A DNA stretch of 64,000 bases. It comes from Eukaryota sp. GEM-RC1. Taxonomy: Eukaryota. Numbering within the stretch: the first letter of the stretch is position 1; every line of letters starts with the position of its first letter. The position numbers were made by a program, and so were the translations under genes. Below are positions 3,213-29,543 of the stretch, in pieces. The notes under the pieces were generated by a model. It did no database searches, was not told the DNA's origin, and worked only from the letters and a program-made list of their open reading frames with translations. The stretch covers positions 434,001-498,000 of the forward strand of contig JAUFOQ010000006.1 of NCBI GenBank assembly GCA_040285855.1, written 5' to 3'.

Positions 3213-3630
3213 TCTTTATTCATTTTTTCGTTCTTTATAAATTTTTTTGTTCTTAGTTTTTATGGTTAATTCTACACCTCAGACAGTGACTTACGTGATC
3301 TTATTTATTTGTACATCTATTGTTTTCACTACTCGCAGTACTTAGGTAAATCTTACATGCAGTCGTTATAACTTTTAACATACTGTAGGTTAGTAAATTG
3401 ACATCAATGTTGGTTTGTTTCAATCCATACAGTACAGTACTATGTTTGTGTATACATGATGTCATTAGAATTATTCGTTCATCACATGTCGTTAAAATAA
3501 ATTGAATGTATGTCAGGTGTATTGTCAAATTGAAGATGTCGCAAAAAGTCAACTGTAGTCCAGATCAGTTTACAGATACTCTTCATCATTACTCTCGCAT
3601 GCATGTTTAGCGGGATGAGGTCCTCTCGCT

Positions 3631-3910
3631 CTCCCCCTCCGTGTCAATTCCCCTCCAATGAACTACACACACATACTTAAAAATAAGAGCTATGCCGTGT
3701 GTGGTTCTTCTCTCGCTGACGGTACAGTTTCTCCCCTCCGTGTCAATTCCCCTCCAATGAACTACACACACATACTTAAAAATAAGAGCTATGCCGTGTG
3801 TCGTTCTTCTCTCGCCTGACGGTACAGTTTCTCCCCTCCGTGTCAATTCCCCTCCAATGAACTACACACACATACTTAAAAATAAGAGCTATGCCGTGTG
3901 TGGTTCTTCC
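3631..3910 (+). repeat. About 2.8 tandem copies of a ~100-bp unit at the 5' end of the 2A/Fanzor ORF
   Basis: CTCCCCTCCGTGTCAATTCCCCTCCAATGAACTACACACACATACTTAAAAATAAGAGCTATGCCGTGTG recurs at ~3631, ~3731 and ~3831. Confidence 0.95.
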
Positions 3911-5431: not shown

Positions 5432-5522
5432 TGATACCGTTTGGCTACAAAGGGTAGGGAAAAGATGTTTATAAATAAAATAATATGATCTTGTAACACT
5501 TCACTAACACCTGTGGCTAACA
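5432..5522 (-). repeat. 3' LTR of family A (91 bp)
   Basis: Identical to 24820-24910; preceded on the minus strand by the polypurine tract GAAAGAAGAGAAGAGG. Confidence 0.95.
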
Positions 5523-6995
5523 TTACCTCTTCTCTTCTTTCGAGCTCCTAGTTCTCTTTGCTACAGGTGTCTTAACTTTGGAAGACGTCTTAGGAGTACT
5601 CTTACTACTGGAGGTACGTTTAAGCTTAGTGTTGTTATTACTAGACCTGTTTCTATTGTTACGAAATAAATCTAAATTGTCTAATTTTACAAAGTCACTA
5701 TACGCTTTGGTGTTCTTGATGTCCTTGATGGGAACTGATGAAGTATCACCACCAAACCAAAGTACAGTGCAGAATTCACCATCGGGTGTATCAAACCTAT
5801 CTAGGATCTTAACCACGATGTGTTCTTCAGAATTCCCAGAAGCAATTGCTCTGTGGAGATCATGATCAGCAGGTAGATCTGATTGAAAGATCTTACATTG
5901 ATGAATGCTAGTCTTACTAACATATCCAGTGATCAGATTCTTTAATGAAACAGAAGATTTTGAATCAACTGAGACAACTAGAAAAGGTCCAGTGTAGTTT
6001 CCATGGAGCTTACTAGTTTTGGCGACCTCTAACACAAGATCTCCAATCTTAAATGATTGACTAGTGTTAAACTTCTTCTTAGGCTTGAGTACTGATTGAC
6101 GATCATCTGCATCTTCTCTTTTTTTTGTTAAACGTTCTAGTTTCATTTTAATGTCGTTAATAAACGGAACATTCTTTGTCGATTTCTCAACAGCATCTAG
6201 TAAACCACTAGGATCTGCACCAGGACTTATGTCACTACCAAACATCAGTTCGTAAGGAGTATGCCCAGTTATTGAACTCTTTGTTGCGTTGATCTGCAAC
6301 TGTACAGTTGGAATGTACGTTGACCAATTGTCATAATCATTGAAGTCCACAAGAAGACGACGTAGGCTTTGCAGAACGTCTCTGTGACGTCGTTCCACCA
6401 GTCCATTACTCTGGGAGAAATGAGGAATCGAACGACTTACTTCAATCGTCAGTAGGTTACATATTGCCTCGAAAATAGCATTGGCAAACTCCGTACCATT
6501 ATCACTATGGATACAAAACGGTATTCCGAAGATAGCAATCACATCCCACACAAGACGATATGCTACTTCTCTACTGTTGAGTTCTTCGAGGGGGCTCAGA
6601 ATGGTGTATCTGGTGAAAGAATCTACAAACACCAATAGGAATTGGTTTCCATTTTGATCTTTTGGAAGTGGACCGATTGTGTCGACATTAAGTCTAGCAA
6701 AAGGTCTATCAGCCCATAGAGAACCCGTCGATTCAATTATCTTTTTTAGGGATAGGTGCCGTTTTCTGACACGCAGGGCATTGCTGAACATGTTTTATCA
6801 TGTCAGCTTTCATACTCTGGCCAAAAGTAACCACTATTGAACAATATTTCCAAACTTCGTTTCTTGTTTGGGTGTCCTGACTGGACTAAGCCATGTAGCA
6901 TGTAAAGAACTTTCTTTATTAAGCTAGATGGAATCAAAATCTTGTTCTTTGAGTTCATGTATACATTACTCATTGTACACAAAATTGAACCATTA
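5523..6995 (-). CDS. Family A integrase (HHCC, DDE, GPF motif, degenerate chromodomain); frameshift near 6800
   Basis: LHGLVQSGHP..FWP, VDTIGP, SDNGTEF, NGLVERRHR, GPFLV, and EEHIVVKILD...CTVLWFG. The stop codon abuts the LTR. Confidence 0.92.
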
Positions 6996-7079
6996 TGTAA
7001 GTATATAATAGCTAATAGCAATCATAAACTATCTTAATTTCACTCCATACTTTCGTATGTCTTCTAACACAAAGCATCA
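6996..7079 (+). repeat. 5' LTR of family B (84 bp)
   Basis: TGTAAGTATATAATAGC...ACAAAGCATCA; copies at 13074 and 19578. Confidence 0.95.
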
Positions 7080-9087
7080 ATATATATTGGCTTCTAATGC
7101 CAAGAAGAAACTCTCCCCAGATGAACTATCTGCTCTGTTTGGTGGAGTACCTTCTTCGGAAGGGTTAGGGAAACTCCCCCTCCCAAAGAGCAAGGGCTCC
7201 TCGAAGAGAACCAAGCGAAAACCCCAGCCTGCCGAGCCGGAAATATCCGACTTTGCCGTTCATCCTCCCCTCGGTGTTTCGGATACCTCCAAATCCTCTC
7301 CTGAAAAGGATGGAGGTACTTCAAAACCCTCTCCTGAAAAGGATGGAGGTACCAAATCCTCTCCTGAAAAGGATGGAGGTACTTCAAAACCCTCTCCTGA
7401 AAAGGATGGAGGTACCAAATCCTCTCCTGAAAAGGATGGAGGTACTCCTAAACCCTCTCCTGAAAAGGATGGAGGTACCAAATCCTCTCCTGAAAAGGAT
7501 GGAGGTACTCCTAAACCCTCTCCTGAAAAGGATGGAGGTACTCCCAACATCTCTCCAGAAATGGATACGAGAACTTCCCACATCAAAACTTCCCCTAACA
7601 AAGGTAAGAAGGTCGGGAAGAAGTTGGGTAGATCAAAGCCTGTCTCAAGGTCCAAATCCAGACCCAAGAAAGACAGAGGCTCCCCCATGTTCCGTAAGCT
7701 AACGAGTACGGCTACTAACAGTCTGATCAGCAAGTATATCCCATCGTATGATGAGGAAGACCTCACTTTGACAGACCTCCATGTGACTAGCCCGGAAAGT
7801 AGTAGCTCATCTCTAGTGGAAGTTAGTCCAGCTTCTCTAGTAGACGTCAGTTCAGACGACGGACTTCCCCCTCCTTCCTCCAAGTCGGTTCCCATTGAAA
7901 CTGGTGACAAAATGATTGAGCGCCTCATTCGAGAAAATCATGAGTTGAAGCTCTCTATGTTAGAACTTATCAGCGAAGTCAGGGCTGATAGGAAGAAACA
8001 ACCCTCACATCCAGTCATTCCTCCAGTGAAGCCCAAGAAAAAGGTCACAGCAGGCAGCATCCAGACTATCGGTACTGATGATCAGTTGCCAAGTATAGCT
8101 CTGCCATCGGCCTTCTCCACCTCCAGAGTCGATTTTTCCTCTGTCGAGGATCCAGCCGGATTCACCGAATCTGCAACCGGCCACATCTCTCCCCAGAACG
8201 CAGCCTTCGCCGAGCTTGAGAAAGAATCTCGCCGGGAAGCTAAGCTCAAACCCCCGTACCTCCAGAAAACGGATCCCCTTTCATGCTACAACTTCGCTCT
8301 TGAATGGAGAAGATACTTTAGAGCTAGAGGACGTGGCATTGATGCTGCTAAGCATCTCCATGACTTAGAAAACCAAGTGCAAGCTTGGCGATCAATCGCT
8401 GATCCTAAAACCATGGATGAACTCCTTTCCCCGTTTGAAGATCAACTCTCAATCAACAAACCAACTCATGGTGAGCCCCTCCATGGATTGGATCTCGCAA
8501 GAGACCTCCTCTTAAATGTGGATATCCGCGGCTTACAACTGCATGTTGATCCCTTAATCCTCACCTCCTGGAAGAATGATGGGACTATCCCCACATTCTT
8601 GAACAATTGGTACATCTGGGAACGTATCATCTTGAACACCCAGGCCGAAAATCCTCGTCAAGGAGAAGCCTTGATTGCTAACTGTATGATGGACTGGTCA
8701 CAGAACAGAAGGTTCAGGTCCAATCGGGAACGGTGGGACGATTATCTACGTCGTTTCACCAGAGTTGCCAACGCCTGCACTCTAATCCCCATCGACGAAA
8801 AGCATTCATACAGCTTTGACGTTCGTCTCATGATGAAACATTTCGCAAGGAACGTTGGAATCCCCATCGTTTTCCATGACGTCGAGTATTTTTTCAAGGA
8901 CAAGGAAATATTCAAAGAATACACCACCAACGAGATCATCAAGAACATCAAGGATCGTTATCTCAACTGGTGTAGTCAACACCCAAACTTGGATCCAGCC
9001 AGTCTTGCCTTAGCTGACCAACGTATCTTGGATGATACAAGAATCTCCACCCCTCCCCCTCACCGACAGTGGAATCGCCGACATTAG
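7057..9087 (+). CDS. Family B Gag-like ORF1
   Basis: 676-aa ORF starting inside the LTR and preceding pol; contains SPEKDGGT repeats. Confidence 0.8.
   Translation: MSSNTKHQYILASNAKKKLSPDELSALFGGVPSSEGLGKLPLPKSKGSSKRTKRKPQPAEPEISDFAVHPPLGVSDTSKSSPEKDGGTSKPSPEKDGGTKSSPEKDGGTSKPSPEKDGGTKSSPEKDGGTPKPSPEKDGGTKSSPEKDGGTPKPSPEKDGGTPNISPEMDTRTSHIKTSPNKGKKVGKKLGRSKPVSRSKSRPKKDRGSPMFRKLTSTATNSLISKYIPSYDEEDLTLTDLHVTSPESSSSSLVEVSPASLVDVSSDDGLPPPSSKSVPIETGDKMIERLIRENHELKLSMLELISEVRADRKKQPSHPVIPPVKPKKKVTAGSIQTIGTDDQLPSIALPSAFSTSRVDFSSVEDPAGFTESATGHISPQNAAFAELEKESRREAKLKPPYLQKTDPLSCYNFALEWRRYFRARGRGIDAAKHLHDLENQVQAWRSIADPKTMDELLSPFEDQLSINKPTHGEPLHGLDLARDLLLNVDIRGLQLHVDPLILTSWKNDGTIPTFLNNWYIWERIILNTQAENPRQGEALIANCMMDWSQNRRFRSNRERWDDYLRRFTRVANACTLIPIDEKHSYSFDVRLMMKHFARNVGIPIVFHDVEYFFKDKEIFKEYTTNEIIKNIKDRYLNWCSQHPNLDPASLALADQRILDDTRISTPPPHRQWNRRH
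7291..7542 (+). repeat. Eight 30/33-bp coding tandem repeats (SPEKDGGT)
   Basis: CCTCTCCTGAAAAGGATGGAGGTAC occurs 8 times. Confidence 0.95.
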
Positions 9088-11242
9088 GCATTCAAGCGTC
9101 CCTCGTCCCCACCTTTCCAAGGTATTGAAATATTCAAGAGGTTTTGCGTCAGACAGTGACGACGATGCTCACCACTCCCACAGACAGAAAAAACGTCGTG
9201 GTCGGAAATCCAGTGGTAAACACCACGCCCAGAGGTCCCAACCTACAACTCCCAGCACCCCTAATTCCAACATATGCAAATATTGTAAAGAACCAGGCCA
9301 CGCTGTAGAAATGTGTCCCAAGCCAGGATGTAAATCCTCCTCACTGTATACTGGTAATACAGACCCCCGCCGCAAGACACGCCGTTCAGGCAATCATGTA
9401 GGTAAACGTAGTAATAAATCTGATAACTATTTGTATTTTTTAGACACCTCTACATCCCCACAACCACTCAACAACCCTATCAGAGATTTAATCAATGATA
9501 CACCCAGGGTCATGAGTATAAACAGCAACCCCCACAATAATTTCATAAATTTGAATTTATTGGTTAACGATGTCCCAGTAACCGGAACCATCGATTCAGG
9601 CGCACAAATCTCAGTCATCACATCCGATTTAGCCGAATCATGCAACATGAAGATTTCACATGATACTTTATCATACATCACTGCAGATGGAAACCGTACA
9701 TCGTCCTTAGGCACAGCCAAAGGTGTTCTTGCGTTCACACTGAATAGCGCAGCTAACCTAGTGTTTGTAGATCACTCATTCCCAATTGTTACAGGTACCC
9801 AAACAATGCTCATCGGGATCGATTTATTAAACAAACTAGGGCTATTAACAGAGGACAGTCTAGTAATAAAACTGGATAAAGAACATAACATCATCATGAA
9901 AGATGAATCAGAATTCGATCACCTAATGAGCACTCCTCCATCAATGAAATCAATCAGAGACACCGATCATTCTACATCATTCAATCCAGTTGAATCAGGT
10001 TGCACAATCACTTTGGACAATCCTCTTCTAAATCAACAACTGTCATCCCTCTTAGAAGAGTTCAGGATCATATTCCAATCAGCACCACACCCCGATGGAA
10101 TTGATTGTCCACCAATGAGAATCCTCTTCCATGACGAATCAACTGTCGTTAAACGGAAACCTCGTTTCTTCAATCCTGAGAAACTAAAGATTGCCAATGG
10201 CATCTTTGATGAACTTATCGAACAAGGATTCGCCGTGTCTTCCCCCCAATCTAAGTTCTCAAGCCCTGTAGTACTCGTCACGTACCCTGATCATAGGAAA
10301 CCACGTCTGACTGGAGATTACAGCGGTACAGGTGGTGTTAATGATCTAACTGTTCCAATAGCATCTGACCTACCCAACATCGCTGATGTGATTACATTCT
10401 TGCCAGCAGCAAACTTCATTGCAACCCTCGATCTCCCAAAAGCCTTCTGGCAACTCAAAGTTGCTCCTCAAGATATGGACAAAACTGCTTTATCAATCCC
10501 TGGTAGAACAATCACATTCACTAGAGCTCCATTCGGCTTGAAAAATGTACCAGCAATTTTCCTAAACCTGATGACAGAGATCTTCGCAATGGACGGAGTC
10601 TTCATCTATCTAGATGATATCATAGTTATAGCTTCAGCGTTCGATGAATTTATAACTCGACTTCGAGCAGTTTTTAATAAAGCACAATCCGCCAGAGTAA
10701 CCCTCGGCATCCACAAGTGCAAGTTTGTAACTCACAAACACCCAATCAAGATATTAGGTAGTATCTTCCACAACAAAACCAGATTAATCGACGATGTCAG
10801 AATCAAAGCTGTTCTTGAAATTCCAACTCCCAAGACAGTGAAAGATGTCAGAAGCCTCGTAGGCTCCATCAACTACATCAGAGACTGGTTACCAGGAATA
10901 TCCAAGTTGATAGCCCCTATCATTGCCCTAACAAAAGGAAAACCAAAAGGCGTGAAATGGGAACCCCAACACCAACAAGCTTTCGACTCAATCAAAAGGT
11001 TGATAGTCAATCAAATCCCCCTCGACCTTCCTGGTCCCAATTGCATTATCCTCATTAGCGCAGACGCTTCTGATCTAGCAGTGGGAGGAGTCATTTGGAA
11101 TGAGACTACACCAAGTCCTCCAGATACTCCGCTGATAGAACGAAAGGTTCAACCTATAAGTTTCTACAGCAAAATACTGACCGAATCTCAGCTCAACTGG
11201 GCAACCATCCAGAAGAGCTTTATGCCATTCTCCCCATCCTAA
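9032..11242 (+). CDS. Family B pol: CCHC knuckle, aspartic protease, RT, start of RNase H
   Basis: CKYCKEPGHAVEMC, IDSGA, LDLPKAFWQ, PFGLKNVP, YLDD, ADASD. Frameshift near 11215. Confidence 0.95.
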   Translation: MIQESPPLPLTDSGIADIRHSSVPRPHLSKVLKYSRGFASDSDDDAHHSHRQKKRRGRKSSGKHHAQRSQPTTPSTPNSNICKYCKEPGHAVEMCPKPGCKSSSLYTGNTDPRRKTRRSGNHVGKRSNKSDNYLYFLDTSTSPQPLNNPIRDLINDTPRVMSINSNPHNNFINLNLLVNDVPVTGTIDSGAQISVITSDLAESCNMKISHDTLSYITADGNRTSSLGTAKGVLAFTLNSAANLVFVDHSFPIVTGTQTMLIGIDLLNKLGLLTEDSLVIKLDKEHNIIMKDESEFDHLMSTPPSMKSIRDTDHSTSFNPVESGCTITLDNPLLNQQLSSLLEEFRIIFQSAPHPDGIDCPPMRILFHDESTVVKRKPRFFNPEKLKIANGIFDELIEQGFAVSSPQSKFSSPVVLVTYPDHRKPRLTGDYSGTGGVNDLTVPIASDLPNIADVITFLPAANFIATLDLPKAFWQLKVAPQDMDKTALSIPGRTITFTRAPFGLKNVPAIFLNLMTEIFAMDGVFIYLDDIIVIASAFDEFITRLRAVFNKAQSARVTLGIHKCKFVTHKHPIKILGSIFHNKTRLIDDVRIKAVLEIPTPKTVKDVRSLVGSINYIRDWLPGISKLIAPIIALTKGKPKGVKWEPQHQQAFDSIKRLIVNQIPLDLPGPNCIILISADASDLAVGGVIWNETTPSPPDTPLIERKVQPISFYSKILTESQLNWATIQKSFMPFSPS

Positions 11243-11343
11243 CAGAATCGAGTCTGGCAAACTTCCTCAAGACTAGACACCTTACAATCTTCACAGATCA
11301 CAAGAACCTAGCATATCTTATCTCGTGTCCCGATAAGAACAGA

Positions 11344-13073
11344 ATGGTCAAAAGATGGCTATTCGTGCTATCAGAATACCAATTCGACATAGTACACACA
11401 TCCGGAGTAGACAACCATTGGGCAGACATGCTCTCACGGTTATGTCCTCACAACAGTTCCCCCTCGCATTCCGATGCTCAGCTCACTGATGATCCAGTAG
11501 CTACTCCAAGAATTGACCACACAAACATCCCATCAATTAACAGTCTCCGTGAAGTTGCACAAAGAGATCTCCCAATTTTCAGCAATTGGTTGAGCAGAAT
11601 CCGTTCCGAACAGCGTAAAGCAGTCGAATCAAACGAACCTCTCTTCATCAACACAACATTCAACGATAGAGTACAGTTATATCTAACTCCCAACAAGAAA
11701 ATCCTGATCCCATTGTCCCTCAGGAAATCCACCTTGCTAAACATCCATGGACTAGTTCAATCCGGTCACCCCAGTTTATCCACGTCTATCAAAACTCTGA
11801 ACGACAGCGACTACTGGTGGCCAAACATGAAAGATGATTTAACCAATCACATCAAGAACTGCCCTTCTTGCCAAAAGATCTCTCCAATCAAAAGAGATCA
11901 AATCCCTCACTCAGGTTCCCTTTGGGCTGATAAGCCCTTCTCCAAAATCAATGTTGACACTATTGGTCCATTATCCCCTGATGCTGACGGTAACCGTTTT
12001 ATTTTAGTATTCGTAGATTCTTTCACTAGATTCACAATACTAGTTCCAATAATCGATCTGAACGCCAAAGAAGCTGCTTATGCACTCGTGTTCAACGTTT
12101 GTGGTATATTTGGTATCCCCTACTCCATCCACAGCGATAACGGTCCTGAATTTGCTAACGCAACATTCAACGCAGTATGTCAACTGCTGGCAATTGAAAA
12201 CTCAACGTCCATTCCGCACTTTTCTCAATCAAACGGGCTAGTCGAGAGACGTCATCGTGATGTCTTAAGAAATCTTCAACGTTTCCTAATCGACTTCGGT
12301 ACATTCGACAACTGGGCTGAATACATTCCCTTCGTCCAACTCCAGCTTAACGCTACCAAGAACCGTTACACCGAACACACTCCCTATGAACTCATGTTTG
12401 GGTCCTCTTTTGGTCCTAAAGCAGATCCCAGTCTCATAATCAAAGCTCTAGAAGCATCCAATTTAAGCATCCCTTTTATTGAAGACCTTCAAAGAAAAAA
12501 CGAGAGAATAAAGGAAAAGCAGGAATCAGTAAGTAGCAATCAATCGTCAAAGAGACCCCCTAAGTCCAATAAATCAAATCCGTTTGGAATTGGCGATCTG
12601 ATCCTCAGATCCTCTAAGACTGCTACAAAGCTTCATGGCAAACACTCTGGCCCATTCCTGGTCATCGAGATCCCTTCACCATCATCCTTGAAAATCAAGA
12701 ACCTCGTATCTGGCGTTGAGTCCCAAGCCAGTGTACATCAATGTAAGCTGTACAACTCCGACCTTCCATCTAACCATGGTATACACCAACAAGTTGCAGC
12801 TGGTGATAAGGAAGAACATGTCATCATCCAAGTGTTGGATCAGTTCCACTCACATGAAGGACCTATGTGTTCTGTTCTGTGGTATGGCGGTGATATCACA
12901 ACAGTTGCTTCTTCTAGCATCAAAAACACTAAAGCCTATGTCGAGTTCATGAAAATAATAATAATCCTCCCTCGAGTCCCAGAAAGAGAACCTCATCCAA
13001 AGCTAAACCCAATAAAACACCTATAGCAAAGAGAACTCGCAGAAGCGTTGGCTCGAAGAAGGAGAAGAAGTAG
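11344..13073 (+). CDS. Family B RNase H end and integrase with degenerate chromodomain
   Basis: HGLVQSGHP..CPSCQ, VDTIG, SDNG, VERRHR, GPF. A frameshift near 12955 relative to the 17847-19577 copy. Confidence 0.93.
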
Positions 13074-13157
13074 TGTAAGTATATAATAGCTAATAGCAAT
13101 CATAAACTATCTTAAATTCACTCCATACTTTCGTATGTCTTCTAACACAAAGCATCA
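13074..13157 (+). repeat. 3' LTR of family B
   Basis: Follows the PPT GAAGAAGGAGAAGAAG and the TAG stop; followed by TSD ATTA. Confidence 0.95.
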
Positions 13158-13290
13158 ATTAAACAGTTGATCTCCTTGTTCTATAGCTTTAGATTGTTCT
13201 GACCTAATGGTGGATAACCAAGAGTCAAATAAAGGAAGTTTATTGTCTGTTGAGAGATTACGAAGACATTTGATAGCTAATACGTTGGAG

Positions 13291-16200
13291 TCACGTGGAA
13301 GCATAGTCTGCATCATCATAAAGTAAGCCTTCATGAGAAAGGGTTAAATCACTTTTGATGGAAAGATTTGAGATCGTTAAAGATTTGATTGTTTCAACTG
13401 GGCGTCGGTCAATAACACGTGACAACATGTCAGCCCATTGATTGTTTGTACCAGCTACATGTACTATCTCAAAATCGAACTCTGAGAAAATTGGAATCCA
13501 TCGTTTGACAATACGATTCTTTTCTGGAGCAGATATTAGATAGGCAAGGTTCCTATGATCAGTAAAGATCGTCAAGTGCCTACTTAACAGAAAACCTTCT
13601 AAACTAGATTCGGTCAGAATCAAAAGAATGGCATACAGATCTTTCTGGATAGCTGCCCAATTCTGTTGACTATCATTGAGTAAACGGCTATAAAAAGATA
13701 CAGGTCTAACTCTACGTTCTTCTAACGGAGTTCCTGGAGGAGCTGGAAGATTTTCTTCCTGCCAGATCACACCACCAACAGCAATGTCGGATGCATCTGT
13801 GGATATGATAATGTTCTTATCAGTATCAGGTAAGTCTAAAGCCATATGGTTTATAATCTCAGACTTTAGTTGAGTTAATAGAGCATCATGGTCTTTTGTC
13901 CAAACAATTTTTTTGGGTTTACCACGAGTCAGTTTATTGATTGATGCAGTCAAGTTCGAATAATTCGGAATCCATTCACGAACATAATTCAAAGCACCAA
14001 GTAAACTTCTAACTTCAGGTAAGGTTGAAGGAGCAGGTAACTCAATCAACGCCGAAACTCTTTTATCATCTATGCAACGGGTTTTATTACAAAAGTTGCT
14101 GCCCAGAATCTTATTAGGATGTCTAGAAGTGGTGAACCTACACTTCTTCAATCCAATCCGTACTCTAAAACGTTCTGCTCGTTCCAGTACTAGATTTATT
14201 CTTGAAATAAACTCTTCAAAGGTATTGCCTACAACAATTATATCATAAATATAAATGAAAACACCTTCGACATTGAAAATTTCCATCATGATGTTTTGAA
14301 AAATTGCTGGTACGTTTTTCAATCCAAAACATGCTCGTTTAAAGCTAATAGACATTCCAGGTATAGACACACTGGTCTTCTCGACATCTTCTTCAGATAC
14401 ATTTAGCTGCCAGAATGCTTTAGGAAGGTCAAGTGTTCCAATGAAATTAGCTTTCGAAAGAAACTCTAGAACATCACAGATCCGTGGTAAATTTGGTTTC
14501 ACCGGTCTGGTATTAGCATTAATTCCATCAAGTCCACTGAAATCTCCAGTTAAACGAGGCTTACGATGATCATTATAAACCACCAAGACTATGGGACTGC
14601 TGAACTCACCAGTTGATGGTACGGCCCATCCTTGTCGTATAAGTTCATTAAAAGTTTCTTCGGCTATACGCTGTTTTTCAGGGTTAAGCCTTCTAGGAGG
14701 ACGAAATACAGTGACACTTTCATCATAGAATGGAATTGTCATGGGTGGACAATCAATACCATCAGGATGTATATCTTCTGAAAAGACTTGTTTGTATTTA
14801 CTGAGTAGGCTCAGAAGCTCCGTTCTTCTTGTAGAATCATCCAATTCTATCGTACAACCAGAGTTGTCAATGGTTTCTTCAAACAGATTTATATCTAATT
14901 GAGTGTTACCGTACTGATCAATAGTAAAATGTGTTGAATTTGGTTTTATTGAACATTTTGATTGAACTCTATTAATCGAAATTGATGGAGACCTCATTCT
15001 CTCATCAAATTCACTCTCTGCATTGAGAATAGTGCTATGTTCTTTATCTAATCTAATGACTAGACCATCATCCGAAAGCAACCCCAGTTCTTCTTGCAAG
15101 TCTCTACCAATGAGGAGAATTTTTGTTCCTGGAACTACTGGTAGAGTATGCTTAACATGAATCTGGTTGGCCAAGCTGCCAACGTTGAACGTCAGAACAC
15201 CTATTGCACTACCTAAGGAAGTAGCACGAATATTATTCGCTGAGATGTATTCAATACAACTATCAGTAGTTGTCATCTCACAGTAGCGTATCAAATCTTG
15301 AGAAATGACTGAACATGATGCTGCTGAGTCAAATTCTCCTACTACTGGTACATTGTTGATTAACAATCGAATACATAAAGGACCCTTACCTTTAGAATCG
15401 AACCCTAGGTTTTGGTTGAGACTACGAATTGTTTCAACAGATGATGTACTTCTACCCTTGCTTGAATGTGTGTTCAAAGCAGCCAATGGGTTCATGTACT
15501 TATGAGGTGTAGTGTGATTATCTCTAGATGTGTTATTTATTGCAAGTCTGAAAATATAGTTATTCTGTTGTTTATTGGAACTAAAACGACGACTAAAAGA
15601 TTGACTACGACTGTCACCTGATCTACGTTTGTTGGACTTCTTATCACTGTCAGATTGAGGTTTTGATCTACAATCAGTGGAGTAATGGCCCATTTTTCCA
15701 CAGTTAAAACATTTAACCGTAGACTTAACATCTCCAGGTGTACCATGAGATTGAGAATGGGGCTTGTTTGCGGTATTTGGTCGATTTCTTCGATTTCTAG
15801 AAGGAAAACGACTGGAAGGAGTGGATAAGGACTTCACAGCTGTGGAACGCTTGTAGGTAGTCCAGATCGATCTAACTTCTTGGAAGAATTGAGGTAGCTT
15901 ATCATCCTCAGTTTTGAGACGATGATCCCATCTAAGAACAAGTTCATTCAAAGCAATAATTCCTTTGTCAGGATTCAGTGTTTCTAACATCAACTCGGCT
16001 ACTGTGGAAGCAGGGACCTTTGTTCGGACAGTTTCATCACTCGACGTAGCTATTATCGCCATGGAACATTTGGGAACGCTAATTACGCCACGTAGGTGTC
16101 GGTCAAAGCACTCAGCAGGGTCTTTGGAGCTACCCAATCTTATTTCTTTAATTGCATCAATGGCTGTTGTAGTTGATGAGTATTGACTCTTGTTAATCAA

Positions 16201-16329
16201 TAAACGCCAGATGTTTTGTTCAAGTACCTGACTACTGTTGTTAGTACCAATCAAATCTAACATTTTCCAATCATTCAAAGTTGTTTGATCTATGAAATGA
16301 CTAATGCCAGCTGGATCAATTTCACACAA
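13291..16329 (-). CDS. Family A gag-pol, duplicated partial copy (gag C-term, CCHC, protease, RT, RNase H)
   Basis: CFNCGKMGHYSTDC, FDSAAS, LDLPKAFWQ, YIYD (YIDD in the other copy), TDASD, FTDHRNL. Confidence 0.92.
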   Translation of the reverse strand: MCEIDPAGISHFIDQTTLNDWKMLDLIGTNNSSQVLEQNIWRLLINKSQYSSTTTAIDAIKEIRLGSSKDPAECFDRHLRGVISVPKCSMAIIATSSDETVRTKVPASTVAELMLETLNPDKGIIALNELVLRWDHRLKTEDDKLPQFFQEVRSIWTTYKRSTAVKSLSTPSSRFPSRNRRNRPNTANKPHSQSHGTPGDVKSTVKCFNCGKMGHYSTDCRSKPQSDSDKKSNKRRSGDSRSQSFSRRFSSNKQQNNYIFRLAINNTSRDNHTTPHKYMNPLAALNTHSSKGRSTSSVETIRSLNQNLGFDSKGKGPLCIRLLINNVPVVGEFDSAASCSVISQDLIRYCEMTTTDSCIEYISANNIRATSLGSAIGVLTFNVGSLANQIHVKHTLPVVPGTKILLIGRDLQEELGLLSDDGLVIRLDKEHSTILNAESEFDERMRSPSISINRVQSKCSIKPNSTHFTIDQYGNTQLDINLFEETIDNSGCTIELDDSTRRTELLSLLSKYKQVFSEDIHPDGIDCPPMTIPFYDESVTVFRPPRRLNPEKQRIAEETFNELIRQGWAVPSTGEFSSPIVLVVYNDHRKPRLTGDFSGLDGINANTRPVKPNLPRICDVLEFLSKANFIGTLDLPKAFWQLNVSEEDVEKTSVSIPGMSISFKRACFGLKNVPAIFQNIMMEIFNVEGVFIYIYDIIVVGNTFEEFISRINLVLERAERFRVRIGLKKCRFTTSRHPNKILGSNFCNKTRCIDDKRVSALIELPAPSTLPEVRSLLGALNYVREWIPNYSNLTASINKLTRGKPKKIVWTKDHDALLTQLKSEIINHMALDLPDTDKNIIISTDASDIAVGGVIWQEENLPAPPGTPLEERRVRPVSFYSRLLNDSQQNWAAIQKDLYAILLILTESSLEGFLLSRHLTIFTDHRNLAYLISAPEKNRIVKRWIPIFSEFDFEIVHVAGTNNQWADMLSRVIDRRPVETIKSLTISNLSIKSDLTLSHEGLLYDDADYAST

Positions 16330-16345
16330 TGCTGTCCTAGCATAA

Positions 16346-19300
16346 TATTAACAGAGGACAGTCTAGTAATAAAACTGGATAAAGAACATAACATCATCAT
16401 GAAAGATGAATCAGAATTCGATCACCTAATGAGCACTCCTCCATCAATGAAATCAATCAGAGACACCGATCATTCTACATCATTCAATCCAGTTGAATCA
16501 GGTTGCACAATCACTTTGGACAATCCTCTTCTAAATCAACAACTGTCATCCCTCTTAGAAGAGTTCAGGATCATATTCCAATCAGCACCACACCCTGATG
16601 GAATTGATTGTCCACCAATGAGAATCCCCTTCCATGACGAATCAACTGTCGTTAAACGGAAACCTCGTTTCTTCAATCCTGAGAAACTAAAGATTGCCAA
16701 TGGCATCTTTGATGAACTTATCGAACAAGGATTCGCCGTGTCTTCCCCCCAATCTAAGTTCTCAAGCCCTTTAGTACTCGTCACGTACCCTGATCATAGG
16801 AAACCACGTCTGACTGGAGATTACAGCGGTACAGGTGGTGTTAATGATCTAACTGTTCCAATAGCATCTGACCTACCCAACATCGCTGATGTGATTACAT
16901 TCTTGCCAGCAGCAAACTTCATTGCAACCCTCGATCTCCCAAAAGCCTTCTGGCAACTCAAAGTTGCTCCTCAAGATATGGACAAAACTGCTTTATCAAT
17001 CCCTGGTAGAACAATCACATTCACTAGAGCTCCATTCGGCTTGAAAAATGTACCAGCAATTTTCCTAAACCTGATGACAGAGATCTTCGCAATGGACGGA
17101 GTCTTCATCTATCTAGATGATATCATAGTTATAGCTTCAGCGTTCGATGAATTTATAACTCGACTTCGAGCAGTTTTTAATAAAGCACAATCCGCCAGAG
17201 TAACCCTCGGCATCCACAAGTGCAAGTTTGTAACTCACAAACACCCAATCAAGATATTAGGTAGTATCTTCCACAACAAAACCAGATTAATCGACGATGT
17301 CAGAATCAAAGCTGTTCTTGAAATTCCAACTCCCAAGACAGTGAAAGATGTCAGAAGCCTCGTAGGCTCCATCAACTACATCAGAGACTGGTTACCAGGA
17401 ATATCCAAGTTGATAGCCCCTATCATTGCCCTAACAAAAGGAAAACCAAAAGGCGTGAAATGGGAACCCCAACACCAACAAGCTTTCGACTCAATCAAAA
17501 GGTTGATAGTCAATCAAATCCCCCTCGACCTTCCTGGTCCCAATTGCATTATCCTCATTAGCGCAGACGCTTCTGATCTAGCAGTGGGAGGAGTCATTTG
17601 GAATGAGACTACACCAAGTCCTCCAGGTACTCCGCTGATAGAACGAAAGGTTCAACCTATAAGTTTCTACAGCAAAATACTGACCGAATCTCAGCTCAAC
17701 TGGGCAACCATCCAGAAGAGCTTTATGCCATTCTCCCCATCCTAACAGAATCGAGTCTGGCAAACTTCCTCAAGACTAGACACCTTACAATCTTCACAGA
17801 TCACAAGAACCTAGCATATCTTATCTCGTGTCCCGATAAGAACAGAATGGTCAAAAGATGGCTATTCGTGCTATCAGAATACCAATTCGACATAGTACAC
17901 ACATCCGGAGTAGACAACCATTGGGCAGACATGCTCTCACGGTTATGTCCTCACAACAGTTCCCCCTCGCATTCCGATGCTCAGCTCACTGATGATCCAG
18001 TAGCTACTCCAAGAATTGACCACACAAACATCCCATCAATTAACAGTCTCCGTGAAGTTGCACAAAGAGATCTCCCAATTTTCAGCAATTGGTTGAGCAG
18101 AATCCGTTCCGAACAGCGTAAAGCAGTCGAATCAAACGAACCTCTCTTCATCAACACAACATTCAACGATAGAGTACAGTTATATCTAACTCCCAACAAG
18201 AAAATCCTGATCCCATTGTCCCTCAGGAAATCCACCTTGCTAAACATCCATGGACTAGTTCAATCCGGTCACCCCAGTTTATCCACGTCTATCAAAACTC
18301 TGAACGACAGCGACTACTGGTGGCCAAACATGAAAGATGATTTAACCAATCACATCAAGAACTGCCCTTCTTGCCAAAAGATCTCTCCAATCAAAAGAGA
18401 TCAAATCCCTCACTCAGGTTCCCTTTGGGCTGATAAGCCCTTCTCCAAAATCAATGTTGACACTATTGGTCCATTATCCCCTGATGCTGACGGTAACCGT
18501 TTTATTTTAGTATTCGTAGATTCTTTCACTAGATTCACAATACTAGTTCCAATAATCGATCTGAACGCCAAAGAAGCTGCTTATGCACTCGTGTTCAACG
18601 TTTGTGGTATATTTGGTATCCCCTACTCCATCCACAGCGATAACGGTCCTGAATTTGCTAACGCAACATTCAACGCAGTATGTCAACTGCTGGCAATTGA
18701 AAACTCAACGTCCATTCCGCACTTTTCTCAATCAAACGGGCTAGTCGAGAGACGTCATCGTGATGTCTTAAGAAATCTTCAACGTTTCCTAATCGACTTC
18801 GGTACATTCGACAACTGGGCTGAATACATTCCCTTCGTCCAACTCCAGCTTAACGCTACCAAGAACCGTTACACCGAACACACTCCCTATGAACTCATGT
18901 TTGGGTCCTCTTTTGGTCCTAAAGCAGATCCCAGTCTCATAATCAAAGCTCTAGAAGCATCCAATTTAAGCATCCCTTTTATTGAAGACCTTCAAAGAAA
19001 AAACGAGAGAATAAAGGAAAAGCAGGAATCAGTAAGTAGCAATCAATCGTCAAAGAGACCCCCTAAGTCCAATAAATCAAATCCGTTTGTAATTGGCGAT
19101 CTGATCCTCAGATCCTCTAAGACTGCTACAAAGCTTCATGGCAAACACTCTGGTCCATTCCTGGTCATCGAGATCCCTTCACCATCATCCTTGAAAATCA
19201 AGAACCTTGTATCTGGCGTTGAGTCCCAAGCCAGTGTACATCAATGTAAGCTGTACAACTCCGACCTTCCATCTAACCATGGTATACACCAACAAGTTGC

Positions 19301-19577
19301 AGCTGGTGATAAGGAAGAACATGTCATCATCCAAGTGTTGGATCAGTTCCACTCACATGAAGGACCTATGTGTTCTGTTCTGTGGTATGGCGGTGATATC
19401 ACAACAGTTGCTTCTTCTAGCATCAAAAACACTAAAGCCTATGTCGAGTTCATGAAAAATAATAATAATCCTCCCTCGAGTCCCAGAAAGAGAACCTCAT
19501 CCAAAGCTAAACCCAATAAAACACCTATAGCAAAGAGAACTCGCAGAAGCGTTGGCTCGAAGAAGGAGAAGAAGTAG
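16346..19577 (+). CDS. Family B pol (RT, RNase H, integrase), duplicated 5'-truncated copy
   Basis: ORFs 16285-17745 and 17847-19577 are nearly identical to 9032-13073. Confidence 0.92.
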
Positions 19578-19661
19578 TGTAAGTATATAATAGCTAATAG
19601 CAATCATAAACTATCTTAAATTCACTCCATACTTTCGTATGTCTTCTAAGACAAAGCATCA
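19578..19661 (+). repeat. Duplicated 3' LTR of family B
   Basis: Same 84-bp LTR followed by ATTA. Confidence 0.95.
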
Positions 19662-22600
19662 ATTAAACAGTTGATCTCCTTGTTCTATCGCTTTAGATTG
19701 TTCTGACCTAATGGTGGATAACCAAGAGTCAAATAAAGGAAGTTTATTGTGTGTTGAGAGATTACGAAGACATTTGATAGCTAATACGTTGGAGTCACGT
19801 GGAAGCATCTCAACATAGTCTGCATCATCATAAAGTAAGCCTTCATGAGAAAGGGTTAAATCACTTTTGATGGAAAGATTTGAGATCGTTAAAGATTTGA
19901 TTGTTTCAACTGGGCGTCGGTCAATAACACGTGACAACATGTCAGCCCATTGATTGTTTGTACCAGCTACATGTACTATCTCAAAATCGAACTCTGAGAA
20001 AATTGGAATCCATCGTTTGACAATACGATTCTTTTCTGGAGCAGATATTAGATAGGCAAGGTTCCTATGATCAGTAAAGATCGTCAAGTGCCTACTTAAC
20101 AGAAAACCTTCTAAACTAGATTCGGTCAGAATCAAAAGAATGGCATACAGATCTTTCTGGATAGCTGCCCAATTCTGTTGACTATCATTGAGTAAACGGC
20201 TATAAAAAGATACAGGTCTAACTCTACGTTCTTCTAACGGAGTTCCTGGAGGAGCTGGAGGATTTTCTTCCTGCCAGATCACACCACCAACAGCAATGTC
20301 GGATGCATCTGTGGATATGATAATGTTCTTATCAGTATCAGGTAAGTCTAAAGCCATATGGTTTATAATCTCAGACTTTAGTTGAGTTAATAGAGCATCA
20401 TGGTCTTTTGTCCAAACAATTTTTTGGGTTTACCACGAGTCAGTTTATTGATTGATGCAGTCAAGTTCGAATAATTCGGAATCCATTCACGAACATAATT
20501 CAAAGCACCAAGTAAACTTCTAACTTCAGGTAAGGTTGAAGGAGCAGGTAACTCAATCAACGCCGAAACTCTTTTATCATCTATGCAACGGGTTTTATTA
20601 CAAAAGTTGCTGCCCAGAATCTTATTAGGATGTCTAGAAGTGGTGAACCTACACTTCTTCAATCCAATCCGTACTCTAAAACGTTCTGCTCGTTCCAGTA
20701 CTAGATTTATTCTTGAAATAAACTCTTCAAAGGTATTGCCTACAACAATTATATCATCAATATAAATGAAAACACCTTCGACATTGAAAATTTCCATCAT
20801 GATTTGAAAAATTGCTGGTACGTTTTTCAATCCAAAACATGCTCGTTTAAAGCTAATAGACATTCCAGGTATAGACACACTGGTCTTCTCGACATCTTCT
20901 TCAGCTACATTTAGCTGCCAGAATGCTTTAGGAAGGTCAAGTGTTCCAATGAAATTAGCTTTCGAAAGAAACTCTAGAACATCACAGATCCGTGGTAAAT
21001 TTGGTTTCACCGGTCTGGTATTAGCATTAATCCCATCAAGTCCACTGAAATCTCCAGTTAAACGAGGCTTACGATGATCATTATAAACCACCAAGACTAT
21101 GGGACTGCTGAACTCACCAGTTGATGGTACGGCCCATCCTTGTCGTATAAGTTCATTAAAAGTTTCTTCGGCTATACGCTGTTTTTCAGGGTTAAGCCTT
21201 CTAGGAGGACGAAATACAGTGACACTTTCATCATAGAATGGAATTGTCATGGGTGGACAATCAATACCATCAGGATGTATATCTTCTGAAAAGACTTGTT
21301 TGTATTTACTGAGTAGGCTCAGAAGCTCCGTTCTTCTTGTAGAATCATCCAATTCTATCGTACAACCAGAGTTGTCAATGGTTTCTTCAAACAGATTTAT
21401 ATCTAATTGAGTGTTACCGTACTGATCAATAGTAAAATGTGTTGAATTTGGTTTTATTGAACATTTTGATTGAACTCTATTAATCGAAATTGATGGAGAC
21501 CTCATTCTCTCATCAAATTCACTCTCTGCATTGAGAATAGTGCTATGTTCTTTATCTAATCTAATGACTAGACCATCATCCGAAAGCAACCCCAGTTCTT
21601 CTTGCAAGTCTCTACCAATGAGGAGAATTTTTGTTCCTGGAACTACTGGTAGAGTATGCTTAACATGAATCTGGTTGGCCAAGCTGCCAACGTTGAACGT
21701 CAGAACACCTATTGCACTACCTAAGGAAGTAGCACGAATATTATTCGCTGAGATGTATTCAATACAACTATCAGTAGTTGTCATCTCACAGTAGCGTATC
21801 AAATCTTGAGAAATGACTGAACATGATGCTGCTGAGTCAAATTCTCCTACTACTGGTACATTGTTGATTAACAATCGAATACATAAAGGACCCTTACCTT
21901 TAGAATCGAACCCTAGGTTTTGGTTGAGACTACGAATTGTTTCAACAGATGATGTACTTCTACCCTTGCTTGAATGTGTGTTCAAAGCAGCCAATGGGTT
22001 CATGTACTTATGAGGTGTAGTGTGATTATCTCTAGATGTGTTATTTATTGCAAGTCTGAAAATATAGTTATTCTGTTGTTTATTGGAACTAAAACGACGA
22101 CTAAAAGATTGACTACGACTGTCACCTGATCTACGTTTGTTGGACTTCTTATCACTGTCAGATTGAGGTTTTGATCTACAATCAGTGGAGTAATGGCCCA
22201 TTTTTCCACAGTTAAAACATTTAACCGTAGACTTAACATCTCCAGGTGTACCATGAGATTGAGAATGGGGCTTGTTTGCGGTATTTGGTCGATTTCTTCG
22301 ATTTCTAGAAGGAAAACGACTGGAAGGAGTGGATAAGGACTTCACAGCTGTGGAACGCTTGTAGGTAGTCCAGATCGATCTAACTTCTTGGAAGAATTGA
22401 GGTAGCTTATCATCCTCAGTTTTGAGACGATGATCCCATCTAAGAACAAGTTCATTCAAAGCAATAATTCCTTTGTCAGGATTCAGTGTTTCTAACATCA
22501 ACTCGGCTACTGTGGAAGCAGGGACCTTTGTTCGGACAGTTTCATCACTCGACGTAGCTATTATCGCCATGGAACATTTGGGAACGCTAATTACGCCACG

Positions 22601-22867
22601 GAGGTGTCGGTCAAAGCACTCAGCAGGGTCTTTGGAGCTACCCAATCTTATTTCTTTAATTGCATCAATGGCTGTTGTAGTTGATGAGTATTGACTCTTG
22701 TTAATCAATAAACGCCAGATGTTTTGTTCAAGTACCTGACTACTGTTGTTAGTACCAATCAAATCTAACATTTTCCAATCATTCAAAGTTGTTTGATCTA
22801 TGAAATGACTAATGCCAGCTGGATCAATTTCACACAATGCTGTCCTAGCAAGGTCGAATTTGTTCAA
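19659..22867 (-). CDS. Family A gag-pol (CCHC, protease, RT, RNase H); frameshift near 20420
   Basis: ORFs 20387-22867 and 19659-20357; RT motif YIDD. Confidence 0.93.
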
Positions 22868-24812
22868 AGGAGTACCAATCCAGAGGTCATAATCGAAACG
22901 TTCAGTTTGTTTTCTGACATGACATGAATAAACTTGACAACCTCATAACGAGTGTCGTTTTTCAAGAACGGCTCTCTGTCTTTTTTCTTCTTGATCTTCT
23001 TGGGAGGAGTCACACCAGATGAGAGAATAACAGAATCATGAAGGACATTGTCAGGACGTTCATCTTCAGAGGATTGACTAAGATCGATGTGATTTTCAAT
23101 CGATGGAGACAAATCAGGAAACTTGTTTGATTGTCTATCTCTTTCTGCTTTGGTTTTGTTGGCTTCAGCAATCAACTCGTTTCTATGTCGAATTTTCGGT
23201 TCTTCGAGTTCTTTTTTCGACATGACTGTTGATTCTTGGTTCAAATCACGAGTGAAGTTCTCGGTTACACGGTAAACGTTTTCATGTTCTTCACTGGCAA
23301 CAAACCGATCAACGTCTCCAAATTCTCCATCAAACTTTCTAGTTGAGAGAATATCACGTGAACCATTAGTGAAGCGGTCAACAGATTCTGGACGGAAAGG
23401 TTCACCAGGAACGTGAGCAGAAAGGCGAGCAGTTTGACGTAGCTCTTCAGGCTTGGGAAGAAGTGTACCAACTTCTCGTAAAGCACCATGAGCAACAGGA
23501 AGGACCTTTTGAGATCCACCAATGCCACTACTGTTGGACAACCACAGAACCTTCATCAGGAACAGCTAAGGTCGTGTTTGATGCTTCAAAGGTTGACTGT
23601 GGAAGGTTTTCATATCTATGACCAACGGGAAGGTGTCTAGAACTAACAGCGACGTTGTGATACGTCTTGACTTGATTGCTCAAGCTTTGACAATACCACG
23701 CTGAGTAAGCATACGTAACGTATCTACCATCGGCATCGAAACTAGGTTCCAATGGTTCAATCAAGATACCATGACGAGGATCCCATGAGTAATCCGAGGG
23801 ATAACGATACGTATCCCCAGCATCTCCATCATACAAATCACCCAGAAAGCGTTCAATAACTTGAGGGGAAATACCTGGAGGAACGTTCCTCAACAGATAG
23901 TGCCGTCTTTTAGGCATACGGTTGCGGATGACAGGATGCCAAGGAGCGAACTTCGCCAAGTGCCACATGTCGTAATCAGAGATACCAACGCTGTTGTCTT
24001 GTGGACTTACCCAGGGTATGAGTCTATTTGGGATAGCATCCTTATGGAAGTGCTGTTCCTCAATAGACCCAACTAGCTCTTCGACTTTGTTGCCTCGATC
24101 TTCTGGAGAGAGACTCATCTTACGAGCTAGAAGTTCCTTTTCAACAAGAAGCTTCTGTTCTGCTTCGAGTCTTCTAGACTGCTCTTTGGCGAGAGATTCC
24201 TGTAACTTGCGAATCTCTTCAACCACTTCAGTTGACCTCTTTTGAGGAACTGGAACAACATCGGGAATGCTTTCTTTATTAAAACTATTTCTACGAGGGA
24301 AGAATAGGGAGAGGAGACGCTATTACAACAACATCATGACTCTCGGAATGCGGAGTACTGCTACTGTCAGCATCGCTTACTCTATACTTCTCTAACAAGC
24401 TTGGGATACGGTCTGAAATTACAGAGTGAGTATCCAAACCCACTTCGCCATCCTTGTGGGAAGACGAAGTCCTTCCATCCTCAGATGGGCATCCACCTTA
24501 AGGTTGAACATCTACAACTCTACGAGAAGTAGATTCACCAACCTCAGGTGAGATTTCCGTCACCTCCTTGTGGGAAGTGGGGCTTCTATCCTCAGATAGG
24601 CATCCGTCCTCAGACAGGCATCCATCCTCAGATGGGTCACTTTCAAATTCCGACGAGTCAACTGACTCTTCTGTCTCAGGAACCAATGGCTCCTTTCGAC
24701 GGGAAGACACTTTGGAGCTAGACTTAGATCTAGTCAAAGGTTTGTTTCTACGATTAGTTTTGTTTCCCGCTTTTGGGGGGTTAGTAGTCCTTTTCTTCAC
24801 CATCTTGGACAA
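22864..24812 (-). CDS. Family A 5' ORF / Gag N-terminal region, broken into several frames
   Basis: ORFs 24498-24812, 23528-24226 and 22864-23556 lie collinear between the 5' LTR and gag-pol. Confidence 0.6.
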
Positions 24813-24819
24813 TAATTAT

Positions 24820-24910
24820 TGATACCGTTTGGCTACAAAGGGTAGGGAAAAGATGTTTATAAATAAAATAATATGATCTTGTAACACTTCACTAACACCT
24901 GTGGCTAACA
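24820..24910 (-). repeat. 5' LTR of family A (91 bp)
   Basis: Identical to 5432-5522; followed by TSD CACC on the + strand. Confidence 0.95.
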
Positions 24911-26010
24911 CACCGTCAATGCAAAAGGATATACTTATCATGGAAGAAAGTCTACACACTGAACCTGTAAAAGAAGTTGTTTCTGTAGACACCTTAGTCT
25001 CCTTATCTAAAAAAGAACTACATAAACCTCAAAAGAGTGGAATTACTCCTCCATTTAAGAAATCGAATCTATCAGAATTAACAGAAACAGAAGAAATCCC
25101 AACATTTTGTTTAATTGATTTTAAAACCATGATTACTGATGCAAAACGACTCAATCCAAGAATTCTCAAATCACCTAAAACTGTATTGCCTAAAAAAAGT
25201 GTCGACTCTGATGATATTGAAGATGACTCTGAGGAACCAGAGGATGCTGATGTACCTAAAATCAAAGAAGAAGTTGAAGCATCGAGAGCAGAACTGTTTG
25301 CAAATCCTTTGGATAAAGAAGACAAAATAATCTTTATCAGTCTCAAATTTATCTATGCTAATTTCACTTCAACTGTTATTTTTAGTAAAAAGAACATAAA
25401 CAATACTTTTGAAAATGTCGAAATAATTGTTTGTGCTTCAGAAGAAGCCATGATTGGGGAACTTATCCAAGTTTTATGCCAAACAAAACCCAGATTGTTT
25501 ATTGGATATAACACTGATGAACTTTTGTTTCCTTTTTTGATTAAACGGTGTGAACTGTATAAGATTCAGACCAATTTTCATTTAGATAATCCATACAGAC
25601 CCTACGTACCCAACTGGTTTCATAGATGGTGTAAGCTTTGCAATTTTGGACCCTTTGTTTCTCTAGACTTGGCAAATGTTACAAAGTCTACTTATGTGTT
25701 CAAAGGTGGTAGAAGTTTGGAAAATGTTTGTTCAAAATTGTTTCGGAAACATGTACCCAATTTAATTTTGTCGTCATTAGAATTAACTACGTACTTCACA
25801 GAATTTCGAAAAGTACCAGGCATAACCGTTAATAAGGAAATAGAGAAAGAGTTTAACCTACTCGCACACAACAAGCAAACCTTCAAATTGTGGACTGATA
25901 ACGTAAAAGTAATTACTCTGGTTGATGATTTACTTCAACGAATTAACTGTCTAACTGAATTACATGAATATTTCTTTGATGAAGAAACTCAACATGTTCT
26001 AGAGCGCCAT
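24911..26010 (+). pseudogene. Middle part of the Fanzor polyprotein: inactive family-B DNA polymerase 3'-5' exonuclease-like domain
   Basis: FCLIDFKT (ExoI-like), SEEAMIGELIQVLCQTKPRLFIGYNTDELLFPFLIKRC (ExoII-like) and SLDLANVTKSTYVFKGGRSLENVCSKLF. No polymerase palm motifs. Confidence 0.75.
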
Positions 26011-29368: not shown

Positions 29369-29543
29369 AGAGTCAAATTCGCTTTTTTGTTTTTAAGAAC
29401 TCTTAAATTGTGATGTACAGGATTATGTTCTACATCAATGTGCGCTTTCCACACATTGAATCAATATGTATGATTAAATCGGTTGGTTTAGTTAGAGATA
29501 TTTTCGTAAAGAAGAACAAGAATTCAACAACTTCCATCTTGAT

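Follow-up and report, generated by a model that had tools for sequence, protein, structure and literature searches.

Introduction

For long terminal repeat (LTR) retrotransposons, the established primers are transfer RNAs (tRNAs), either entire or as halves, or, for members of the Tf1/sushi group, the 5′ end of the element's own transcript. The two Ty3/gypsy elements described here, A and B, lie in a 64,000-nucleotide stretch of DNA from Eukaryota sp. GEM-RC1 (GenBank assembly GCA_040285855.1, contig JAUFOQ010000006.1, positions 434,001 to 498,000 of the forward strand), which as a whole is called the window. The evidence supports the reading that both elements lack a tRNA primer-binding site (PBS) and carry a conserved palindrome in its place. 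A first-pass annotation of the window, made from its letters, had described the palindrome of B and offered two tRNA-independent ways of priming, annealing of two genomic RNAs or a fold-back. It also suggested a check for compensatory changes in other families and a check of the literature for palindromic replacements of the PBS.

The literature check yields a precedent in the fungal GalEa elements of the Ty1/copia group, as described in PMC5445492 (2017). These elements have no PBS; they carry a 10-bp palindrome that includes the last A of the LTR, together with a downstream partner. The palindrome variants CTGATCAGT and CTAATTAGT retain the symmetry, and the GalEa authors state that no model fitted the palindromic site (PMC5445492). 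GalEa and A/B thus share the absence of a tRNA PBS and a short palindrome that starts from the last base or bases of the LTR in the PBS position. Three points are new relative to GalEa. The elements are Gypsy rather than Copia; the palindrome measures 12 bp and takes in the whole CA, against 10 bp and the final A alone; and a hairpin partner is missing: GalEa has a second 9-bp inverse complement (CHSeq2) 12-41 bp downstream, and none was found in A or B. Unlike in GalEa, moreover, the site apparently lies inside the gag frame in most sampled relatives of A and B.

Tf1-type elements have a PBS that pairs with the 5′ end of the transcript (PMC4600332; bioRxiv 10.1101/2022.12.06.519325). The Tf1/sushi elements, which also include Tcn1 and TAR, resemble the proposal made below in being tRNA-independent and in having a primer cut from their own RNA within an RNA-RNA duplex at the PBS (PMC4600332, PMC6317226). 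They also belong to Ty3/gypsy, and the integrase tail of the present elements may likewise be chromodomain-like. However, Tf1 forms a three-duplex structure within one transcript and its PBS is non-palindromic, whereas A and B have no such LTR complement. Dictyostelid Skipper chromoviruses (PMC5006619) and SM-Tcn1 (PMC2864245) resemble A and B as Ty3/gypsy elements that lack both a tRNA PBS and an LTR complement; they have a polypyrimidine or T-rich stretch instead of a palindrome, and their priming is left unexplained in these sources. Bivalve biv-TRIM elements also lack a canonical PBS and contain inverted repeats or palindromes in their inner domain, but they are non-autonomous and form GalEa-like hairpins (PMC6934838), whereas A and B each have a single perfect palindrome aligned with the CA.

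No description of a palindromic PBS replacement in Gypsy elements was found in the literature searched, which largely excludes subscription journals; the supplements of PMC5445492 and PMC6317226, which contain lists of PBS sequences, may bear on the point. The same literature gave no support for a palindromic site in the algal elements Chlamyvir or REM1.

A palindrome at the LTR edge of two elements

The palindrome of B, CAATATATATTG, is composed of CA, the last two bases of the 5′ LTR, followed by eight A/T bases and TG. It equals its own reverse complement, and the symmetry ends at 12 bp. The position of this perfect palindrome, the CA end of the LTR, and the absence of an adjoining TGG all stand as first annotated. 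The match between the LTRs of B overruns CA by two bases because the ATTA target duplication begins with AT; ATTA is present at both flanks of the element and therefore places the LTR end at CA. What had been missed is that the palindrome of B lies inside the gag frame, where it is translated as Q-Y-I-L, and that element A has a palindrome of its own. A two-LTR circle junction is ruled out as the source of the site in B; the bases that follow TG differ from the LTR start.

Element A is a minus-strand Gypsy element whose pol gene is the insertion site of B. It is flanked by a GGTG target duplication, and on the minus strand a polypurine tract and the integrase stop codon precede its 3′ LTR. Its palindrome, CAATAATTATTG, again consists of the CA of the LTR, eight A/T bases, and TG. 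The two palindromes agree at 10 of 12 bases and differ solely in the central pair, where B has TA and A has AT, a swap that preserves the symmetry. The flanks agree at 11 of 30 bases upstream and 10 of 30 downstream, and the pol proteins are 52% identical. The gag frame of A has a stop codon inside the palindrome, and its gag ATG lies 6 nt beyond.

A 12-bp palindrome by itself is ordinary in this window, which contains 30 palindromes of at least 12 bp against 18.6 expected from 20 Markov-2 simulations. Its position is what counts. Given the CA, a perfect 12-mer at the LTR edge arises by chance about 3e-4 times per element, a figure that is not to be squared because the palindromes of A and B are probably homologous.

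Covariation in related proteins

Among named proteins, the nearest are those of Eukaryota sp. GEM-RC1, TZLM1-RC, and TZLM3-RCL, which make up the best 67 matches with 39-95% identity; beyond these 67, the matches belong to other organisms, mostly at ~25-35% identity. The TZLM strain names are taken here to denote skoliomonads. GEMRC is named among the skoliomonads, free-living anaerobic metamonads, in the skoliomonad genome preprint, and a term search of its main text finds no mention of retrotransposons, LTR, Gypsy, or tRNA. The host of the elements is probably a free-living anaerobic protist of this metamonad group.

Many of the relatives' open reading frames (ORFs) are annotated from an ATG within the LTR, and their gag N-termini therefore hold the translation of the LTR junction. 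Seven family-B proteins begin M...HQYILA[SE]NA, and a sister family begins M...HQYVLAENA. Y-I and Y-V are the sole stop-free readings of a palindromic CAATA-NN-TATTG in the QY[IV]L frame. With the centre left free, CAATA-NN-TATTG fits the first 40 residues of 21 of 251 skoliomonad-named proteins, and all 21 have a palindromic centre. Internal windows match in 21 of 3905 cases, one of them with a palindromic centre, and the other N-termini match in none of 261.

A motif-blind set of gag starts was also defined, a design adopted after the result of a broader test on 168 N-terminal types that is weighed in the Discussion. It requires at least 300 residues before the protease region and an N-terminus that is not internal to another protein, and it comprises 75 proteins of 24 types. 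Seventeen of these 24 types fit a back-translated CA..TG 12-bp palindrome, compared with a mean of 3.0 (standard deviation 1.9, maximum 12) in 300 random half-pairings. Other controls give 2 (complement-only), 2 (mirror), 7 (direct repeat), and 1-2 (downstream windows). The suggested check for compensatory conservation comes out in favour of the palindrome, in DNA for A and at the protein level for the relatives. One of the 17, LNLNC (P0428), is taken as a probable chance fit, as are LISRW, FKRAC, SVITE, and QRAL; all five are kept outside the tree counts given below.

The motif appears as three reading frames of one 12-mer, QY[IV]L, [ST][IVL][IR][ITN][GVD], and N[NT]YC, and the DNA of A and B yields the corresponding motif frames. 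Among 373 proteins there are 82 junction motifs in all frames. Frame +1 contributes SIRIG/D (29), TIIIG/D (4), TVITG (18), TVITV (9), TVRTG/V (2), and SLING (4); frame 0 contributes QYIL (7) and QYVL (1); and frame +2 contributes NNNYC (7) and NNTYC (1). SVITE matches (3) are protease fragments, the one QFLL match is an integrase fragment, and there are two further loose matches.

Bases 3, 4, 9, and 10 are set by the residues irrespective of the codon. For positions 3:10 in frame +1, 33 proteins have I..I (A-T) and 29 have V..T (G-C), to which a protease fragment adds three V..T matches; I..T and V..I are absent from the frame +1 motifs, though the pattern permitted both. A quick pol tree with 18 labelled rows implies at least four changes of pair 3:10 and at least five of pair 6:7, among the cluster members listed (up to 15 per cluster) and with states that rest partly on the palindromic codon chosen for R, L, and Y. 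A second quick tree gives similar groups. Judged from these translated junctions, the symmetry has likely been retained in many families while the letters vary.

An origin by chance in a sequence rich in A/T, or through a conserved gag peptide, is scarcely credible for the site. Such palindromes are frequent in the window and that of B lies inside the gag frame, yet the palindrome of A stands in the same register, and the observed gag-start count was reached in none of the 300 half-pairing controls. The use of three different frames, together with the stop codon inside the site of A, means that the palindrome is not a peptide constraint.

No related DNA was found in viral contigs, searched by single protein and by alignment, or in genome contigs. 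Metagenome contigs hold 13 distant loci (24-31% identity), in none of which an LTR junction is definable. Metagenome contigs L003-L005, L007, and L009-L012 encode a distant reverse transcriptase (RT)-RNase H at 24-29% identity, and L005 and L007 have terminal overlaps at ~6 kb, as expected of circular elements.

tRNA and self-priming sites

A TGG-initiated PBS about 1-3 nt from the 5′ LTR was not found in A or B. The first TGG in B begins at 7088, 9 nt beyond the LTR, and that in A at +18, where it overlaps the gag ATG. Counted from the TGG, a tRNA T-arm would give G at position 16 and TYGAA at positions 19-23. B has A at position 16 and AGAAA at 19-23, and the tRNA 3′-end fit at these positions fails in both elements. 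The bases after TGG vary in close copies, with ASN or AEN in family B, and the residues after TGG are PQG or LHG in two families with near-identical pol. The window contains no tRNA genes.

A host tRNA or tRNA fragment might still prime from a site that is displaced or internal, for instance from the TGG that begins at 7088. Half-tRNA and internal-tRNA primers are known (PMC6317226; FunCo1 in PMC5445492), and a TGG falls on palindrome bases 11-13 in B and, implied by a Gly codon, in many families. This is nevertheless very unlikely: A has no TGG until +18, the TGG of B is at odds with T-arm geometry, the bases after TGG differ between near-identical copies, and several palindromes coexist in proteins named for one host.

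The Tf1-type complement is also missing. In A and in B alike, Watson-Crick pairing of the LTR with the initial 25 internal bases extends over 6 nt at most; matches of 8-9 nt need G-U pairs and sit at unlike places in the two elements. For a GalEa-type 9-mer partner within 100 nt, the best candidates have four mismatches in B and three, at 48 nt, in A. The first-pass claim of a palindrome in place of a tRNA PBS is supported by element A, by the protein-level covariation, and by the failure of the tRNA 3′-end geometry and of the Tf1-type tests.

Predicted RNA pairing

The 12-mer of B is predicted to form a homodimer at -10.2 kcal/mol and that of A at -9.6 kcal/mol, whereas folding prediction gives no 12-mer hairpin (0.0 kcal/mol). 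Both 12-mers are mostly unpaired in the predicted monomer, and the first nine bases of the B palindrome are unpaired at ~0.9 or more. Local folds show no gain over shuffled sequences (z values of -0.43 and -0.17), and a conserved stem that encloses the palindrome was not found in the folds of A and B.

Fold-back of one RNA at the palindrome, or self-priming of the Tf1 type on the transcript's own 5′ end, is extremely unlikely. Some predicted folds of A do contain a 4-bp stem with a 4-nt loop, but no stable hairpin is predicted for the isolated 12-mer, local folding gains nothing over shuffled sequences, the loop bases covary, and Tf1-type self-priming is countered by the 6-nt limit on LTR complementarity. 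The two central bases are unpairable in a hairpin, yet they co-change, so the selected pairing is most simply one between two molecules. Between the two mechanisms first offered, pairing of two RNAs in a 12-bp duplex is favoured over the hairpin, given the predicted energies and the covariation of the central pair.

Structure of the elements and other features of the window

Coordinates of both elements and of the tandem copy are collected in Table 1.

Table 1. Positions of the palindromes and of the parts of elements A and B within the window
Feature	Position	Strand	Description
Palindrome of element B	7078..7089	.	CAATATATATTG, 12 bp, perfect; fills primer-binding-site position
5′ LTR of B	6996..7079	+	84 bp, TG...CA
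3′ LTR of B	13074..13157	+	1 mismatch to 5′ LTR
Target-site duplication ATTA of B	6992..6995 (left), 13158-13161 (right)	+	4 bp
gag-like ORF of B	7057..9087	+	Opens within LTR, reads across palindrome
pol ORF of B, part 1	9014..11242	+	Aspartyl protease (DSG), reverse transcriptase (YLDD), RNase H start
pol ORF of B, part 2, other frame	11104..13026	+	Remaining RNase H, H2C2 and core integrase, chromodomain-like C-terminal segment
Polypurine tract of B	13055..13073	+	16 purines then TAG, immediately 5′ of 3′ LTR
Palindrome of element A	24810..24821	.	CAATAATTATTG, 12 bp, perfect; register as in B
5′ LTR of A	24820..24910	-	91 bp, TG...CA
3′ LTR of A	5432..5522	-	Identical to 5′ LTR of A
Tandem copy	16346..22850	.	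99.6% identical to 9843-16342 (6.5 kb)

B is a Ty3/gypsy element by its Pfam domain order of protease, RT, RNase H, and integrase. The acidic motifs of RT and RNase H are both there, and the best solved-structure matches of the RT are 4ol8 and the Ty3-G polyprotein 7q5b. The pol gene is divided between frames in the sequence as given. The integrase C-terminus has no match to Pfam Chromo at E<=10; in the ESM Atlas its tail has a feature score of 0.90 with 168 shared features, and 20 of 30 matches are Chromo clusters. A chromodomain-like integrase tail, missed by Pfam and grouped with Chromo clusters by its ESM Atlas features, is present at 19257-19500 and at ~5700-5850 on the minus strand.

The 5′ LTR of B contains a TATA-like TATATAA at LTR positions 7-13 and the in-frame gag ATG at 7057. 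The gag-like ORF has no Pfam match, and seven proteins related to B gag begin in like manner. An alternative start at ATG 7097 was dropped; its frame is a different one, and the seven related proteins and the sister family (P0136) retain the reading frame opened within the LTR. In most sampled families the gag start apparently lies within the LTR (7057-7079 in B), 4-12 codons ahead of the palindrome, as in relatives P0021, P0136, P0339, P0361, P0560, and P0617. The integrase stop codon adjoins the 3′ LTR, at 5523 in A and at 19577 in the duplicate of B. The elements are almost without untranslated ends, and their strong-stop DNA must be very short. The gag N-terminal region of B (7226-7573) consists of alternating 30/33-nt repeats (SPEKDGGT units), whose copy number differs between family-B proteins.

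The tandem copy holds the 3′ half of B, a third B-type LTR (19578-19661) with two bases unlike the 5′ LTR, and part of A, and it adds no 5′ junction. This 6.5-kb duplication (9843-16342 and 16346-22850) reflects either unequal recombination or an assembly artefact.

The rest of the window is rich in mobile-element debris. At the start of a hAT-type transposase ORF (50732-52774; DUF659 and hAT dimerisation), a perfect palindrome of 22 bp (50734-50755) lies amid short ACACG repeats, and a 57-bp direct repeat stands on the opposite side; these features occupy 50693-50755 and 52935-52991. An ORF at 27027-28517 is a possible Fanzor/TnpB-like gene; it matches Cas12f1-like TNB weakly, with an E of 0.0012 that falls short of the curated cut-off. 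An interspersed repeat of ~260-330 bp is present in three copies in both orientations (29112-29369, 54875-55192, and 58446-58798) and is possibly a non-autonomous DNA transposon. Other features include a Pif1-like helicase (40928-41893), a MuDR/SWIM transposase fragment (56440-57078), a family-B polymerase exonuclease domain (24877-26130), an HlyIII-family membrane protein (49968-50510), and tandem arrays with units of 14 bp (793-988) and ~100 bp (3617-3909).

Discussion

The palindrome occupies the PBS position in a fixed register, and a role in priming is therefore favoured. The specific proposal, which is about evenly balanced between right and wrong, is that the palindrome replaces the tRNA site across a skoliomonad clade, with two element RNAs pairing and one of them being cut into the primer. 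Two copies of the element RNA would anneal through the 12-bp palindrome. A nuclease, most likely the RNase H domain of the element, would then cut one strand inside the duplex; the analogy is with Tf1, where RNase H reportedly cleaves an RNA duplex (Levin 1996, listed among the references of PMC4600332). The 5′ piece of the cut RNA would prime minus-strand strong-stop DNA on the partner RNA. The cut would have to fall before the final TG because the primer would otherwise cover the CA of the LTR, which needs copying; cutting after base 8 would produce a primer duplex of 8 bp and an extension past CA of the usual two bases. Plus-strand copying of the primer would rebuild the right arm from the left arm of the partner, which could account for the frequent paired changes.

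The palindrome may instead be merely a dimerisation or packaging signal like the retroviral dimerisation initiation site (DIS), with the primer supplied by another RNA or another part of the transcript. Perfect symmetry and a covarying centre are what an intermolecular signal needs, and palindromes that serve dimerisation occur in retroviruses, where they pair two genomic RNAs (discussed in PMC5445492), and in the tRNA-mediated dimer of Ty3 (PMC5371799). This alternative is possible but rather unlikely. In both elements the palindrome coincides exactly with the place of the primer site and keeps a fixed register to CA, and no second primer site was found beside it. The retroviral DIS, in contrast, occupies the loop of a hairpin at a distance from the LTR end and is additional to a tRNA PBS (PMC5445492), whereas A and B have neither a PBS nor a conserved enclosing stem.

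A role at the DNA level is improbable. It could take the form of fold-back or annealing of cDNA ends at the second strand transfer, or of a binding site for a dimeric element protein, and it would suit a perfect palindrome, which is symmetric in double-stranded DNA and here overlaps the CA end used by integrase. However, each 3′ LTR follows a normal polypurine tract, which makes fold-back unnecessary for plus-strand priming. The central pair would escape constraint in a hairpin, a fixed protein site is not expected to change letters at least nine times on the tree, and the minus-strand primer would be left unaccounted for.

Several points weigh against priming from paired element RNAs. A duplex of 8-12 bp made up wholly of A and U primes weakly, and palindromic symmetry is equally expected from a pure dimerisation signal. 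The TGG at palindrome bases 11-13 could formally still be a relic or a cryptic tRNA site. Any CA..TG 12-bp palindrome fits 21 of the 168 N-terminal types (373 proteins) compared with 8-28 in 30 controls, a test that does not discriminate because most of these types are pol fragments. Seven of the 24 gag-start types lack the motif; two of these begin MVK[KR]R as A does after its site, and five are unexplained. Two single copies (SIRSG and SSING) break a pair. The 5′ junctions read as DNA are those of A and B, and the other families are represented by gene-prediction proteins, in which the R, L, and Y codons are ambiguous on back-translation. The N-terminal types are related, and their counts are not independent.

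Paired element RNAs may, more broadly, amount to a third general way of priming LTR elements, trans dimer-priming, in which RNAs anneal at a palindrome at the LTR edge and one is cut and primes the other. This broader claim is put forward tentatively, at somewhat less than an even chance. If it is true, dimerisation and priming would be one step, without a tRNA and with the symmetry rebuilt in each cycle, and RT priming from an RNA-RNA dimer would be of biochemical interest. A palindromic site would also explain the failure of PBS-based annotation on such elements. To the palindromic replacement left unexplained for GalEa, the clade of A and B adds central-pair covariation and the lack of a hairpin partner. 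If the fungal GalEa site also works by trans dimer-priming, the mechanism would be both widespread and overlooked.

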